IMG/VR virus record: IMGVR_UViG_2734482781_000007
Location: 1 to 24,254 of that record
Reading direction: 5' to 3' (one strand)
Length of the DNA: 24,254 nucleotides
Source of the DNA: a virus
Taxonomy: Duplodnaviria > Heunggongvirae > Uroviricota > Caudoviricetes
Shown here: one piece after another, positions 2,916-11,098 of the stretch
Numbering within the stretch: position 1 is the stretch's first letter
Layout: every line of letters begins with the position of its first letter
Notes under the pieces: generated by a model
Told to the model about the DNA's origin: nothing
The model's input: only the letters and a program-made list of their open reading frames with translations
Database searches by the model: none
Translations under genes and position numbers: made by a program

Positions 2916-3008
2916 CAGCACAAATAAAACACCAGATTAAATAAGAAAACGTGAAAACCATCCGAATTAACGGAGGCATTCACACACGTAAATAATGGAG
3001 ATACAAAA

Positions 3009-6272: not shown

Positions 6273-9095
6273 ATGACGGCAGAGCACATCAGGGACTGGC
6301 AACAACCGCGCCACGCAGTAGGGCGGGAAGGAACGGGGATCCCCGCACCTGAATCCGCGCTTTCTTCCTGGCTGGATGCCTACCGGGCAGAGAACGAGCA
6401 CCGCCAGGAAAAGGCTGATGCGGCGTTCTCCGCCACGCCACTGGGCAATCTGATTAATAAAAGCCTGGACGCACAGGAAAAACAGGACAAAACCATCACG
6501 CTGGCAGGAGACGCCAGAAGACAGGCACGCGGCGCGGTGGATGAAGCCATGGCCTCGCTGCGCCTGCTGCCGTCCTATCTGCGCGATCCGCTTATTCGCC
6601 ACCTCTCCTTCCTGCGCAAAAAACAGGAAGCCGATCGCCGGAAAGGAAAAAAGAACTGGCAGGCTGAACGTTACGCGCACGGAACCCTGCGCAAAATATT
6701 CGAACGTCTGGACTGCACCGACCGTCGCTGGCTGACTCCGGGTTATCGCTCCCTTGCCGGACGTGAACGCCTGGACGATTTGCTGTACCTGCCACAGCTC
6801 AACAAGCACCAGATACAGACGCTGGCCACCATGACGGCGGCGATGTTCAGCAGCACCTTCGAAAAGCTCTGCGATGGCTTTGGCGCGACCGATGGCGAGC
6901 TGACTATGGATATAACGCTGAAGGTGTATCAGATGCTGGCCCGCATGGCGTTACACCTGCACGCCATGCCTCCACATTATGACGCACTGACAACAGACAA
7001 AGACCGGAGGAACGAACCGGACACGGAGCTGCTGCCGGGCGCAATCCTTCGCCTGACCTGTGCGGAATGGTGGAAACGCAAACTGTGGCTGTTACGTTGC
7101 GAGTGGAGAGAAGAACAACTCCGCGCCGCCTGTCTGGTTTCCAGAAAAACATCACCCTATCTGAGCCAGGACGCGTTAAGCGAGTTTCGCGCACAGCGCG
7201 AGAAAACACGCGATTTCCTGAAAAGTTTCATGCTGGAAAATGAAGACGGGTTCACGATTGATCTCGAGACAGTGTATTACGCGGGAGTAAGTAACCCGGT
7301 TCACCGTAAGGCAGAAATGATGGCCACCATGAAGGGGTTGGAACTTCTGGCCGAAGCCCGTGGCGACAAAGCGGTGTTTCTGACTGTCACCTGCCCGTCA
7401 AAATACCACGCCACAACGGAGAACGGTCATCCGAATCCCAAATGGAACGGGGCCACAATGCGCGACTCCAGCGATTACCTGGTTAACACGTTTTTTGCGG
7501 CGGTCCGCAAAAAACTGAACCGCGACGGCCTGCGCTGGTATGGCATCCGCACGGTGGAGCCTCATCATGACGGCACCGTGCACTGGCATATGATGGTCTT
7601 TGCACATCCGGAAGAAATCGACACCATTGTGTCCCATACCCGCGATATTGCCATTCAGGAAGACCGCCACGAGCTGGGCAATGATATTACTCCGCGCTTT
7701 AAGGTGGAGTATGTCGACGGCTCAAAAGGCACGCCAACCAGCTACATCGCCACCTACATCGGAAAGAACCTGGACAGCCGCGCCGTGGATGGCATCGACC
7801 CGAAAACGGGCAAGCCACGCGTGGACCACGAAACCGGAAAATCAATGGCCGAGAGCGTGGAGCGCGCCATCGGCTGGGCGCGCCTTCACCGGGTCCGTCA
7901 GTTCCAGTTCTTTGGCATCCCCTCCCGTCAGGTGTGGCGTGAACTGCGCCGCCTTGCCAGCCAGATGGCACGCAATCCGGAAGGCCCGCAACGGCTGAAA
8001 GATGATGCAATGGATGCGGTACTCGCTGCCGCCGATGCCGGGTGTTTTGCCACCTACATTAAAAAACAGGGTGGCGTGCTTGTTCCACGCAAGGACTACC
8101 TGATTCGCACCGCCTACGACCTCGCAGATGAGCTGAACGATTACGGCGAACAGAGCGTACAGATTTACGGGATCTGGTCACCACTCATCGGGGAATCCTC
8201 CCGTGTGTGCACGCATCCGGATAACTGGAAGCTGGTAAGACGTAAACCGGAAGCGGAAGACAGCGCCCGCGAAAATGGTTTTGACCTTCAGGGCGGCCCT
8301 GCCGACCCTTGGACTCGTGGCAATAACTGTCCCCGTGTACAGGAAACAGACAACAACGGGACAGAACAGCCGGAAGAACGGCCAGCACTGTGGCCGCAGC
8401 TTCCTGACGGCGTTGATGTGGATGAATGGATGCGCTCACTGAAACGGCACGAACGCCGGGCGCTGATGCGTTCGCTTCGTGACAAACAGGCAAAAAACAG
8501 CAGTGATGAAATGCAGAGCTGGACACAGAGCCGCAAACAGCAGCGGCCTTTGCCTGATAACCACGAATTACTCGCTAAAGAATGGCGGGAGTCTGCTGAA
8601 TCTCTCGGCCTGCATATCGGTGAACAACAGATGCAGCACCTGTTACGGGGCGGCAGTCTGTACGTTGACGGCAGCATCATTGCACCGCAGGGATTTGAAA
8701 TTGTACGCAAACCGGATACCCGCCCGGACAGCCGAATCACGCAGCTCTGGCAGCGCCTGAGCCGTAATCACGGCGTAAGCAGCACGGAGATCCGCCATAA
8801 CCCGGTCTCCAGCTATCTGGCACAGCTCGGGGCATCAGACCCCGAAGCCGCCGCACGCCTGGCATCCACACTTCAGCAGGTCCAGAACACCATGAAAACA
8901 CCCGTTACCGTGCTTTCTGACATGCTGCGCGCCATTCGTGACGCGGAGCACGCACAGAGAATCAGAGAAACCACTGAACGCGCCCGCCGCAAAGCAAACC
9001 TGCTGAGGGCTGGCCTGACCAGTGGAAACAAAAAACAGACAGAAACGGGATTCACAAATCCCGTAAATGAGCAAAAAACGCGCCGCGATATATGA
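6273..9095 (+). CDS. A: Replication initiation endonuclease gpA (HUH rolling-circle initiator) with long C-terminal extension
   Basis: 940-aa ORF; HUH-like motif HWHMMVF and tyrosine pair in SYIATYIGKNLD, typical of P2 gpA/phiX174 A-type relaxases; last early gene before the accessory locus. Confidence 0.85.
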   Translation: MTAEHIRDWQQPRHAVGREGTGIPAPESALSSWLDAYRAENEHRQEKADAAFSATPLGNLINKSLDAQEKQDKTITLAGDARRQARGAVDEAMASLRLLPSYLRDPLIRHLSFLRKKQEADRRKGKKNWQAERYAHGTLRKIFERLDCTDRRWLTPGYRSLAGRERLDDLLYLPQLNKHQIQTLATMTAAMFSSTFEKLCDGFGATDGELTMDITLKVYQMLARMALHLHAMPPHYDALTTDKDRRNEPDTELLPGAILRLTCAEWWKRKLWLLRCEWREEQLRAACLVSRKTSPYLSQDALSEFRAQREKTRDFLKSFMLENEDGFTIDLETVYYAGVSNPVHRKAEMMATMKGLELLAEARGDKAVFLTVTCPSKYHATTENGHPNPKWNGATMRDSSDYLVNTFFAAVRKKLNRDGLRWYGIRTVEPHHDGTVHWHMMVFAHPEEIDTIVSHTRDIAIQEDRHELGNDITPRFKVEYVDGSKGTPTSYIATYIGKNLDSRAVDGIDPKTGKPRVDHETGKSMAESVERAIGWARLHRVRQFQFFGIPSRQVWRELRRLASQMARNPEGPQRLKDDAMDAVLAAADAGCFATYIKKQGGVLVPRKDYLIRTAYDLADELNDYGEQSVQIYGIWSPLIGESSRVCTHPDNWKLVRRKPEAEDSARENGFDLQGGPADPWTRGNNCPRVQETDNNGTEQPEERPALWPQLPDGVDVDEWMRSLKRHERRALMRSLRDKQAKNSSDEMQSWTQSRKQQRPLPDNHELLAKEWRESAESLGLHIGEQQMQHLLRGGSLYVDGSIIAPQGFEIVRKPDTRPDSRITQLWQRLSRNHGVSSTEIRHNPVSSYLAQLGASDPEAAARLASTLQQVQNTMKTPVTVLSDMLRAIRDAEHAQRIRETTERARRKANLLRAGLTSGNKKQTETGFTNPVNEQKTRRDI

Positions 9096-9136
9096 AGCGC
9101 GCACAAAACAGGCGAAAGCGGGATTTAAAAATCCCG
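9046..9136. repeat. Two copies of a palindrome-containing 22-bp repeat (CGGGATT-N4-AATCCCG followed by TAAA), 73 bp apart, upstream of parM
   Basis: Copy 1 at 9046-9063 (inside the 3' end of A), copy 2 at 9119-9136 (36 bp before the parM ATG); a GC-rich element GCGCGC..GCGCGC lies between. Confidence 0.6.
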
Positions 9137-9171
9137 TAAACGGTTAATTAACCAACATAAGGAAAATCGAC

Positions 9172-10131
9172 ATGAAAATTTGTATCGACGACGGCTCCAC
9201 CAACATCAAGCTGGCATGGACTGAGAATGGCGAACGCCGCAACGCCATCAGCCCGAACAGCTTCAAGTCGGAATGGTCTGCGCCGTTCGGTGGCATGCAA
9301 CCCGCGAACTACATGCTTGATGGCGTGCGCTATGGTTTTGATCCGGTCAGCGATCGCTTTGTCCAGACGACCGACACGCAATACCAGTACAGCGATGTGA
9401 ATGTAATCGCCATTCATCACGCGCTGGTCAAATCAGGCATCACGCCACAGGAGGTGGATGTGGTTGTCACCCTGCCACTGAGCGAGTATTTCGACACAAA
9501 CGCACAGCCGGACATGGCCAACATCAACCGCAAAAAAGCGAACGTTATGCGCCCGGTGGAGTACCAGAACGGTGAGGCATTCACTATCCGTAACGTGCGG
9601 GTTATGCCTGAATCCATTCCGGCAGGCTTTAAGGCACTGGCTGACATGAGTCCGTTTGAATCCCTGCTGATTGTGGATTTGGGCGGAACCACGCTGGATG
9701 TGGCAAAGGTTCAGGGGCAACTGGCAGGCATCAGCCAGGTATTTTGCGATCCACACGTAGGCGTTTCACTGATGACCGATGCCGTGCTGTCGGTGATGGC
9801 CACCAACGGTATGCGTACCAGCCACCACATCGCCAATACCATTATCGAACATCGCCACGATGAAGCCTGGCTGCGCCAGCACATCCACAATGACGCGCAT
9901 TACGCCAGCCTGGTGGCGGTTATTCGTGAAAAGGAAGAAACACTGAAACAACGCGTGATCCGCGCGCTGGCGGTTTTTTCGGGTTACGGGCGGGTGATGG
10001 TTGTCGGTGGAGGGGCGGAGATTGTGGCACCCGCTATCCGCGAAGCCTGCGGAGTTAATGCGACTTTCATCGCGGACGGGGTGCCACAGTTTGCTCTGGT
10101 TAATGGGCTGTACGCAATGGACAAGGAGTAA
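9172..10131 (+). CDS. parM: ParM/StbA-family actin-like segregation ATPase
   Basis: 319-aa ORF; N-terminus MKICIDDGSTNIKLAW closely parallels plasmid R1 ParM (MLVFIDDGSTNIKLQW as recalled); actin-fold motifs VDLGGTTLDVA and VVGGGAEIV; AAGGA SD 8 nt upstream. Confidence 0.8.
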   Translation: MKICIDDGSTNIKLAWTENGERRNAISPNSFKSEWSAPFGGMQPANYMLDGVRYGFDPVSDRFVQTTDTQYQYSDVNVIAIHHALVKSGITPQEVDVVVTLPLSEYFDTNAQPDMANINRKKANVMRPVEYQNGEAFTIRNVRVMPESIPAGFKALADMSPFESLLIVDLGGTTLDVAKVQGQLAGISQVFCDPHVGVSLMTDAVLSVMATNGMRTSHHIANTIIEHRHDEAWLRQHIHNDAHYASLVAVIREKEETLKQRVIRALAVFSGYGRVMVVGGGAEIVAPAIREACGVNATFIADGVPQFALVNGLYAMDKE

Positions 10132-10135
10132 ACCA

Positions 10136-10447
10136 ATGACGACACCAACCAGACGGATAAGTTTCTATCTGAAGCCCGCCGCCGTCAAGAACGAAGGCGA
10201 AGCATGCGCCTGGCTGGACAGCCTTACACCAGAAGCCCGCAAAAGCGGCCAACGCGTGGCTTTTCTGGCCGGGCTGGCACTTCTGAAAATGAATCCAGCA
10301 GAGGCTTACCGACTGGCTGCATGGGCTGATGATGAAGCGTTATCAGTGACACAAACCAGGACAGAACGCCCCGCATCACAGCCAGTATCAACCGCACAGA
10401 TAACCAGCCAGATGGCCGGAAATATCCGGGCGTTATTTCCCGAATAA
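10136..10447 (+). CDS. parR: ParR-like centromere-binding protein (ribbon-helix-helix type)
   Basis: 103-aa ORF from ATG 10136 (AAGGAG SD; the longer ORF-track reading from 10001 overlaps parM); RRISFYLKPAAV...LDSL...AFLAGLALL parallels R1 ParR as recalled; gene order parM-parR as in R1. Confidence 0.65.
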   Translation: MTTPTRRISFYLKPAAVKNEGEACAWLDSLTPEARKSGQRVAFLAGLALLKMNPAEAYRLAAWADDEALSVTQTRTERPASQPVSTAQITSQMAGNIRALFPE

Positions 10448-10452
10448 CACAA

Positions 10453-10476
10453 CATCAGGGCGAGTTCGCCCTGATG
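10453..10476. terminator. Perfect 10-bp-stem hairpin between convergent parR and the minus-strand cargo gene
   Basis: CATCAGGGCG-AGTT-CGCCCTGATG at 10453-10476; a U-rich tract follows only on the minus-strand transcript side. Confidence 0.5.
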
Positions 10477-10492
10477 CACAAAACATGCAAAA

Positions 10493-11089
10493 TCAGAATT
10501 TAGTATGCAATTTATCTACCAATCGCTTAGCCTCATTAAGCAGTTTTTGGTATTCCCTGCTATCGTTTTCCTGATCTTCATACGCTCGCCGAACACGCCA
10601 TCGAAGAGCAAGGCATTTTAAGTTCCGGTAAAACCTCGGATTACGCTTGCGGCACTCTTCCATATAAGGTTCAAAATGGACATCAAGAAAGATTAAGGTA
10701 GAACCATAAACACGATATAGATACCGCTCATCATACAAACCGTTATTCACGGCATTGGCACAACGCTCCCATTCATTAAAGATGAGCTTTAACGCTTTTG
10801 AACCATCTGTTTGAGAATATTCTTCTTTTCCCCAGTCTGCGATTGGGAAATTGTAGCGGTCCTTGTAGATACGCAGCACTTCAGACCACGCCTCAACTAT
10901 GTCTTTATTGCGTTTGTATGCCGCCTCAAAGTCCAACGAGTTTTTTTCGCGCGACGTCTTTCTTTGATTTCGTATACTAATCACTGCAATAAGCGCCCCT
11001 GCCACCCCCGGGTAGAAGGTAGGGCTGGAGTTCCAGATGTCTGAAAGAAACTTCCATCCACCACAAAGAATAGAAAGCACTAGATCCAT
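10493..11089 (-). CDS. Membrane-anchored hypothetical protein, AT-rich hotspot cargo (candidate phage-defence or exclusion protein)
   Basis: ORF 10493-11098; most likely start is ATG at 11089 (198 aa) because the ORF-track start is TTG. N-terminal hydrophobic segment (DLVLSILCGG...PGVAGALIAVISI), then a roughly 150-aa charged soluble domain with no recognised motif. Base composition visibly more AT-rich than flanking prophage DNA. Confidence 0.6.
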   Translation of the reverse strand: MDLVLSILCGGWKFLSDIWNSSPTFYPGVAGALIAVISIRNQRKTSREKNSLDFEAAYKRNKDIVEAWSEVLRIYKDRYNFPIADWGKEEYSQTDGSKALKLIFNEWERCANAVNNGLYDERYLYRVYGSTLIFLDVHFEPYMEECRKRNPRFYRNLKCLALRWRVRRAYEDQENDSREYQKLLNEAKRLVDKLHTKF

Positions 11090-11098
11090 TATTTTCAA

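Follow-up and report, generated by a model that had tools for sequence, protein, structure and literature searches.

A pair of palindromes upstream of parM as the candidate centromere of a ParM/ParR module in P88-like prophages

Genes and repeats at the A/parM junction

The stretch of DNA considered here (hereafter the window; 24,254 nt, positions 1 to 24,254 of the IMG/VR record IMGVR_UViG_2734482781_000007) is 96–97% identical in megablast searches to Escherichia phage P88 and other Xuanwuvirus members, and by this similarity is classified as a P88-like (Xuanwuvirus) prophage of the P2-like Peduoviridae. Its gene A (6273–9095, plus strand), encoding a 940-aa replication endonuclease of the P2 type (Pfam Phage_GPA, 9.2e-131), is followed on the same strand by parM (9172–10131), the gene for a 319-aa actin-like segregation ATPase (Pfam StbA_N, 2.7e-82, and the ParM C-terminal domain, 6.8e-69), and by parR of the StbB family (10136–10447), which encodes a 103-aa adaptor (Pfam PF10784 Plasmid_stab_B, 1.6e-24). 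A Shine-Dalgarno sequence, AAGGA (9159–9163), 8 nt 5' of the parM ATG on the plus strand, is kept in all relatives, and parR starts 4 nt past the parM stop. Public records annotate the products of both genes as partition proteins. Between 9029 and 9140, at the junction of A and parM, lie two copies of a palindromic repeat, which are the subject of this report as the candidate centromere (parC) of the module.

ParM matches the structure of the ParM of plasmid R1 (PDB 1mwk) with an E-value of 1.1e-93 and is about 47% identical to that protein. ParR, 26% identical to R1 StbB/ParR, aligns with it at the N-terminal strand, TRRISFYLKP (R6, F10, P14), and at the C-terminal tail, NIRALFPE, which corresponds to KKNAMKLIN in R1 and to KNVQHLFPD in the IncL/IncI proteins. 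Residues N96, I97, F101 and P102 are invariant among 26 ParR homologues, and the tail, judging from these alignments, would be the part that binds ParM. A search of the PDB with the ParR sequence gave no match. The E-value of ParM and the alignment of ParR with R1 StbB thus identify the two proteins, at the level of sequence, as an R1-type pair carried by a phage.

Palindrome 1 (CGGGATTCACAAATCCCG, 9046–9063) has the form CGGGATT-CACA-AATCCCG and palindrome 2 (CGGGATTTAAAAATCCCG, 9119–9136) the form CGGGATT-TAAA-AATCCCG, the pairing of the latter being really 8+2+8 (CGGGATTT AA AAATCCCG). Each is directly followed by TAAA and each contains a core GGG-N10-CCC (9047–9062 in the first), and each is a candidate ParR site. 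They start 73 bp apart, leaving 57 nt between the two cores (9063–9119), and palindrome 2 ends 35 nt before the parM ATG. The original prediction, made from the letters of the window, had described two near-identical palindromes with TAAA, 73 bp apart, and both are indeed present at the positions it gave and unique in the window; its figure of 22 bp for the repeat, however, proved too short, since each palindrome is embedded in a 39-nt direct repeat (9029–9067 and 9102–9140; 32/39 identical) built of an A-rich tract, the palindrome and TAAA. The par module starts, on its left side, with unit 1, over which the last codons of A extend, and unit 2 lies between the end of A and parM. The sequence between the units (9068–9101) holds a run of six A residues (9073–9078) and the A stop codon (9093–9095). 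Between palindrome 2 and the parM ribosome-binding site there is also a perfect 12-bp palindrome, GGTTAATTAACC (9142–9153), and an ATTAAT-like motif is present at its position in all four lineages compared; it could be a weak -10 box, which is only a lead.

When the pattern CGGGATT-N4-AATCCCG (CGGGATTNNNNAATCCCG) was sought on both strands of the 24,254 bp with up to two mismatches, two matches were found against a chance expectation of 0.08 from shuffled sequences, and none of 100 shuffles gave two matches. The shorter core GGGATT-N4-AATCCC, also with up to two mismatches, occurs at the same two places only, but its count alone is not significant, as 19 of 100 shuffles reach two. Dispersal of the kind seen for REP elements was not observed, there being only two copies of the palindrome in 24 kb, and inspection of the region by eye revealed no convincing register of A-rich tracts with the 11-bp periodicity of R1.

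The reading frame of A passes through unit 1 before reaching its stop codon, TGA, at 9093–9095, and unit 1, together with the sequence after it, supplies its last ~22 codons (from about 9030). Comparison with related loci shows where these codons come from. In locus L036 the par module (ParM identity 97.5%) comes after a different A gene, of 773 aa, and an additional open reading frame (ORF) of 159 aa (L036 4166–7123), and in L047 it follows yet another upstream ORF; the similarity of both loci to the window begins at ~9029/9030, about 17 nt 5' of palindrome 1, that is, at the left end of the 39-nt unit. The different A gene of L036 implies that the par module has been shuffled between P2-like backbones. 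Between the window and the Hafnia prophage L008, the DNA is 52% identical in the final 300 nt of A, 73% over 9029–9171, 88% in parM and 75% in parR (ParR itself is 74% identical), and all 24 arm bases, 12 per palindrome, are the same in both. The Hafnia A gene ends inside palindrome 1, in another frame (GGGATTCA-TGA-ATCCC). Moreover, the A6 run at 9073–9078 is polymorphic, with A5 in L027 and L171 and A7 in L045, L057, L078, L121 and L154, and these run-length variants alter the C-terminal tail of A and its stop codon. The Hafnia stop in the other frame and the shifts caused by A5 and A7 therefore indicate an element kept as DNA and not as codons.

In phages without parMR, the similarity of the A homologues to the last 400 residues of A is limited to the first ~260 of these, and no palindrome was found near the A end in the three of them that were examined. 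A site belonging to gene A or to a P2-type replication origin was rejected on two grounds, namely that unit 1 follows parMR into the backbones of L036 and L047 and that these three homologues have no palindrome, no search aimed at the nick site of A having been made. By its sequence relations, unit 1 belongs to the par module, and the last ~22 codons of A represent incidental read-through into a cis element. It was correctly predicted that the first copy lies within the last codons of the 940-aa frame; as for the alternative then left open, of A truly extending over a cis element or ending earlier, the frame does extend over it, but the codons in question are those of the par module and not of a conserved protein.

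At its other end the module is bounded by a hairpin with a perfect 11-bp stem (CATCAGGGCGA/TCGCCCTGATG, about 10452–10477), at which, at about 10476, the megablast similarity to P88 stops. This hairpin is terminator-like on the minus strand and is placed to serve the gene of a DUF4760 protein (Pfam) encoded on that strand (10493–11098).

Distribution of the paired element and its relation to ParR

Two surveys, of which the second was independent of the arm sequence, indicate that the element travels with parMR. A scan of IMG/VR for two copies of GGGATT-N4-AATCCC with exact arms, 45–70 nt apart, returned 92 matches, all of them at this junction directly upstream of parM, with only a parM remnant downstream in a few decayed or cut loci. 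In a sample chosen by ParR, comprising 107 distinct P88-like upstream sequences, two elements were present in 101, spaced by 73 bp in 95 of them, by 72 in four and by 74 in two. (The ParR variants P0028 and P0031 lack an upstream sequence, as their contigs begin inside parM.) The matches listed for complete E. coli genomes are all situated at this junction, between an annotated replication endonuclease and ParM. Palindromes without an intact parM were encountered only in decayed loci, L082, L075, L179 and L192: L075 has a single unit and decayed parMR, L192 a single unit, a broken parM and a different upstream sequence, and in L179 (3501–3577), where a ParM remnant takes the place of ParM, one palindrome has survived the loss of the 73 bp between the repeats, and parM and parR are reduced to fragments. 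No relative keeping the palindromes while natively lacking parMR was found among those sampled. Conservation of the repeats in such relatives, which according to the original prediction would have pointed to a function in gene A or in replication, was thus not observed, the three parMR-less A homologues being without a palindrome and the exceptions being decayed loci.

The junction (8990–9200) is present in 1302 of 5426 complete E. coli genomes (24%), nearly always on the chromosome. The median is one place per genome, but there are up to three copies, so several prophages with the same candidate centromere can share one cell. One record, NZ_CP148288.1 (L178), from an E. coli isolated from a cat, presents a complete P88-like genome, integrase included, as a circular "plasmid" of 34,461 bp; it may represent the phage in an episomal or excised state, or sequence assembled from induced phage DNA. 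Another (L104, NZ_JBQPOM010000071.1) is labelled as the Gram-positive Vagococcus sp. and encodes a ParM 97% identical to that of the E. coli phage, which is probably due to contamination or assembly mislabelling. A ParM scan of one genome per species yielded three near-identical loci only, and scans of IMG/VR with ParR alignments, including one led by the Plesiomonas ParR, yielded P88-like loci only and no new lineages.

More distant modules, with ParM homologues 54–63% identical to that of the window, also occur in P2-like prophages between A and the portal gene. Par modules occupy this slot in L184, L186, L187 and L188 (parM at 3001 in each), from Hafnia, Plesiomonas, Serratia and Enterobacter, and on this comparison it appears to be a recurrent home of exchangeable par modules. 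The E. coli P88-like window (ParM 100%, by definition) has the ParR strand TRRISFYL and the elements GGGATTCACAAATCCC and GGGATTTAAAAATCCC, with a spacing of 73, a spacer of 57 and a distance of 52 from the start of element 2 to the ATG. The Hafnia P2-like prophage L008 (88% in parM DNA; TRRISFYL) has GGGATTCATGAATCCC and GGGATTTGAAAATCCC and the values 73, 57 and 51; L184, from a P2-like prophage of Hafnia sp. (ParM 63%; TRRVSFYL), has GGGATTGAGGAAACCC and GGGTTCATTAAATCCC with 73, 57 and 55; and L186, from a P2-like prophage of Plesiomonas (ParM 62%; TRRISFYL), has GGGACAACAAAAACCC and GGGACAACACTAACCC with 72, 56 and 59. The length of the core-to-core spacer is thus 57, 57, 57 and 56 nt in the four lineages, and the spacers of distant pairs are essentially unrelated in sequence, their identity of 0.40–0.49 being close to chance (0.34 on average and at most 0.47 for shuffled spacers). 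The comparison with related prophages proposed in the original prediction accordingly shows the GGG-N10-CCC pair, at 72–73 bp, kept in modules of 62–63% ParM identity.

Where the ParR strand is different, so is the repeat. The P2-like prophages of Serratia (L187, ParM 58%) and Enterobacter (L188, ParM 54%) share the strand NRKISFYL; the former carries 19-nt inverted arms, AGGAACGAAATAGAAAAAT, 28 nt apart (2882–2947), and the latter 20-nt inverted arms of the same type, also 28 nt apart (2883–2950). These arms are a candidate for a different centromere, paired with this strand. Integrated conjugative or plasmid-like elements of Dickeya and Mangrovibacter (L190 and L191, ParM 50–51%), as well as the IncL/M, IncI and IncFII (R1-type) plasmids (L106, L107 and L108, ParM 47–52%), have other strands and direct iterons of 10–11 bp. 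The GGG-N10-CCC pair is present in all four loci with the strand TRR[IV]SFYL and the element is found in none of the seven upstream regions of loci without it (L187, L188, L190, L191 and L106–L108), the R1, IncL/M and IncI parMR loci among them. In these sequences a different DNA-reading strand in ParR goes with a different type of repeat, and an unchanged strand with an unchanged type.

Variation within ParR itself follows the same pattern. Alleles whose identity ranges from 52 to 97% all have the same N-terminal strand. The two main alleles, exemplified by the window (10136–10447) and by L003/L004 (4001–4315), are only ~52% identical, and their divergence is confined to the middle and the linker; they agree in their first 18 residues and in the C-terminal LFPE, and the ParM proteins encoded next to them are 98–99% identical. 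An unchanged strand and tail in alleles so divergent match the unchanged site and the near-invariant ParM, and the pattern suggests recombination or diversifying change restricted to the linker.

A proposed two-site parC and competing explanations

The explanation we consider probable is that 9029–9140 is a cis-acting centromere, the equivalent of parC, of a type II ParM/ParR partition module in a P88-like prophage. The candidate is a repeated cis site directly upstream of parM, as its sequence and position indicate; it contains no tandem iteron array, only two palindromic elements. Such a parC would consist of two palindromic sites of 16–18 bp with the core GGG-N10-CCC (here GGGATT-N4-AATCCC). 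The conserved GGG/CCC dyad and the conserved distance from dyad to dyad have the signature of a protein-binding site, and as the centres are 73 bp, or about seven helical turns, apart, both sites would lie on the same face of the DNA. ParR is envisaged as a ribbon-helix-helix adaptor of the R1 StbB family whose dimers would bind two half-sites per palindrome, about 10 bp apart centre to centre (approximately one helical turn), close to the 11-bp step of the R1 iterons but inverted. The inverted arrangement is plausible in that ribbon-helix-helix partition proteins such as omega bind repeats equally whether these are direct or inverted (PMC5016525). The two occupied palindromes, held at the fixed distance of a 57-nt spacer, would be brought into one ParR–DNA complex, possibly with ParR coating the A-rich DNA between them, and the C-terminal tails of ParR would capture or cap the ends of growing ParM filaments, so that copies of the phage DNA are pushed apart. 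In this scheme the binding of ParR, its stoichiometry and the capture of filaments are inferred by analogy with ParR of R1 and pSK41 (PMC5016525). The whole module, parC-parM-parR (about 9029–10476), would be a mobile unit inserted just after the replication gene, and the upstream frame, A in the window, would simply read into unit 1 until it meets a stop codon.

Several observations weigh against this explanation. R1 parC comprises ten 11-bp direct iterons, five on each side of a clear promoter (PMC5016525), whereas here there are two 18-bp palindromes 73 bp apart, offering only four half-sites in comparison with the ring or helix assembled on the ten iterons of R1. The four 20-bp direct repeats of pSK41 parC, bound by a dimer-of-dimers of ParR (PMC5016525), are contiguous, whereas a fixed spacer of 57 nt separates the sites here, and the proteins are not closely related. 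The AlphaFold model of the ParR monomer is of low confidence (mean pLDDT 55.5), though its helices are where they would be expected. Common variants, GGGACT in element 1 and AATCCT in element 2, break one arm without compensation, and the exact recognition sequence is therefore uncertain. Natural variants with a single unit also exist; apart from L192, these are L148 (about 1457) and L236 (about 957), in both of which a 73-bp deletion between the two direct repeats has left a single palindrome. The independent lineages are few, four having the GGG-N10-CCC type. In the close E. coli/Hafnia clade the units resemble terminators of the minus strand, a hairpin followed by a T-tract. Finally, a consensus scan, which may miss a weak or non-consensus promoter, detected no sigma-70-like promoter at or around the sites of the window, L008, L184 or L186, and hand inspection offered weak candidates only, TATATG/TATAAG between the sites and ATTAAT after site 2.

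The last of these points bears chiefly on regulation. No plus-strand terminator was found between A and parM, and with no sigma-70-like promoter detected either, parMR may be simply co-transcribed with A, probably from the early promoter; its expression would then fall in the period when the phage DNA lies outside the chromosome. ParR could conceivably repress parMR from these sites, a possibility left unsupported by the failure to detect a promoter, and might still modulate read-through. Of the parC-like site and operator originally predicted, the centromere part is strengthened by the position of the element, its travelling with parMR and its presence in relatives, whereas the operator part is weakened by the lack of a recognisable promoter in any of the four lineages, and we would give an autoregulated operator well under an even chance.

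The most serious rival explanation takes the units for RNA elements, either tandem Rho-independent terminators of the minus strand, shielding A and the early operon from antisense transcription, or plus-strand hairpins for the processing or stability of mRNA. The palindromes of the window fold as hairpins of 7–8 bp (about -11 kcal/mol, z about -4); unit 1 of the window (9064 to 9045) and both units of Hafnia L008 are called terminator-like, with T-rich tracts after the minus-strand hairpins (unit 2 of the window is not called), and the conserved 39-nt unit includes the A-rich tract 5' of its palindrome. In L184 and L186, however, the element and its spacing are kept with a stem of only 3–4 bp (GGG/CCC) and a loop of 10 nt, z-scores of 0.04 to -2.5 that are mostly no better than those of shuffled sequences, and no terminator-like call. 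The frequent arm variants are uncompensated, GGGACT creating an A-C mismatch and GGGGTT in L290 doing likewise, and the plus strand has no U-tract. As the DUF4760 gene, the nearest on the minus strand, is provided with a terminator-like hairpin, leftward transcription should hardly extend to 9140, and a conserved spacing of 72–73 bp has no obvious role for independent hairpins. We therefore regard an RNA function as unlikely. A second rival would assign the palindromes to a protein other than ParR, such as a host nucleoid protein or a phage regulator, or would see in them the recombination joints of par-module exchange, given that the left unit coincides with the start of homology to other phage backbones and that natural deletions have occurred between the 39-nt units (L148, L236, L179). 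This is improbable in view of how the type of element tracks the N-terminal strand of ParR across lineages, of its unfailing position immediately upstream of parM and of the retention of both units, not just the one at the boundary, at a fixed spacing; by eye, the sequence between and after the sites does not fit the consensus for IHF (WATCAANNNNTTR) either.

It could also be proposed that the repeat is a duplicated coding sequence, specifying the peptide GF(T/K)NPVN at the end of A and in a 26-codon ORF (MSKKRAAIYEARTKQAKAGFKNPVNG, 9067–9147), which runs from just past palindrome 1 to just past palindrome 2, or in an A product made by frameshifting. Both units do encode G-F-x-N-P-V-N, unit 1 in the A frame and unit 2 in the +1 frame, with the A6 run sitting between the two frames, and the ORF is open over the same number of codons in Hafnia, while most E. 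coli variants have it intact. Yet the Hafnia A gene passes into palindrome 1 in another frame and meets its stop codon there, unit 1 of L036 lies outside any long ORF, and L184 and L186 keep the DNA element without encoding GFxNPVN. The ORF is not preceded by a Shine-Dalgarno sequence, and in several loci A5/A7 or nonsense variants interrupt it. Of the codons that differ between the window and Hafnia, three do so synonymously and 13 non-synonymously, and the ORF is unlikely to be a gene. Dyad symmetry, besides, is left unexplained by coding. The coding explanation was rejected on the Hafnia frame and stop, the position of unit 1 in L036, the run-length variants and the mostly non-synonymous differences, and it must be considered highly improbable.

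Relation to known partition systems and significance

The candidate centromere shares features with several described sites. As in the stbA-stbB loci of R1/NR1, members of the same ParM and ParR families are accompanied by an A-rich site in two blocks directly upstream of parM; unlike there, no promoter is detectable and the left block lies inside the frame of the preceding gene. The sequence AAATCCC of the palindromes resembles AAACCC, the core of the R1 iteron, a resemblance that is a lead only. With pSK41 the common feature would be a ribbon-helix-helix ParR acting on pairs of ~10-bp half-sites, and a pair of dimers could be accommodated by each palindrome of the window. In its logic the nearest precedent is srpMRC of SXT/R391, a ParMRC-like system on an element normally integrated in the chromosome that also relies on few short repeats: srpC consists of four 13-bp repeats, direct and inverted, bound pairwise, with half-sites alone unstable, and its binding and stabilisation were demonstrated experimentally (PMC4489591). 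SXT/R391 is, however, an integrative and conjugative element and not a phage, SrpR has no recognisable similarity to ParR, and the repeat sequence is different. In the Corynebacterium prophage CGP3, the AlpAC/alpS system combines an actin-like filament protein with an adaptor and is implicated in the movement and replication of viral DNA, not in the inheritance of plasmids (PMC4446434, PMC5539076). It resembles the present module in being prophage-encoded and in pairing an actin-like protein with a DNA-binding adaptor that has specific sites, but it differs in its Gram-positive host, in the type of phage and in its actin-like protein and adaptor, which belong to unrelated families. The type Ib centromere binders, omega of pSM19035 and ParG of TP228, are likewise small ribbon-helix-helix dimers that recognise short repeats in either orientation (PMC5016525), but they work with Walker ParA-type motors instead of ParM and on many more repeats. 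In the literature on the P88/Xuanwuvirus par locus no description of this site was found, the par genes being mentioned as annotations or listed among fitness factors. The site is most likely, from its sequence, an unusual two-site form of a known kind of centromere and not a new kind of system, a plausible and useful result that would not surprise a specialist.

ParMRC is a textbook actin-like machine for DNA segregation that has been studied almost wholly on plasmids with iteron centromeres. Here it is found in an integrating P2-like prophage, with a candidate centromere made of two palindromes at a fixed distance. For annotation, a correction follows, namely that the last ~22 codons of gene A would be read-through into a cis element. 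If ParR binds the sites, they would constitute a minimal and easily engineered type II centromere and would provide a handle on the minimum number of ParR dimers able to capture a ParM filament. It would also become testable why an integrating phage keeps a partition system, be it for the positioning of replicating circles, stability in an episomal stage or interference with other elements. A wider reading, possible but rather doubtful, is that temperate P2-family phages of at least five enterobacterial genera carry an exchangeable ParMRC between their replication and portal genes. Its E. coli/Hafnia/Plesiomonas type would have a minimal two-dyad centromere, with dyads exactly seven turns apart, and no promoter of its own, and would be turned on with the early replication operon. 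Its role would be not the inheritance of a plasmid but the positioning or separation of circular phage genomes, during lytic replication, after excision or before integration. Were this true, a phage found in about a quarter of sequenced E. coli would possess an actin-like cytoskeleton for viral DNA.

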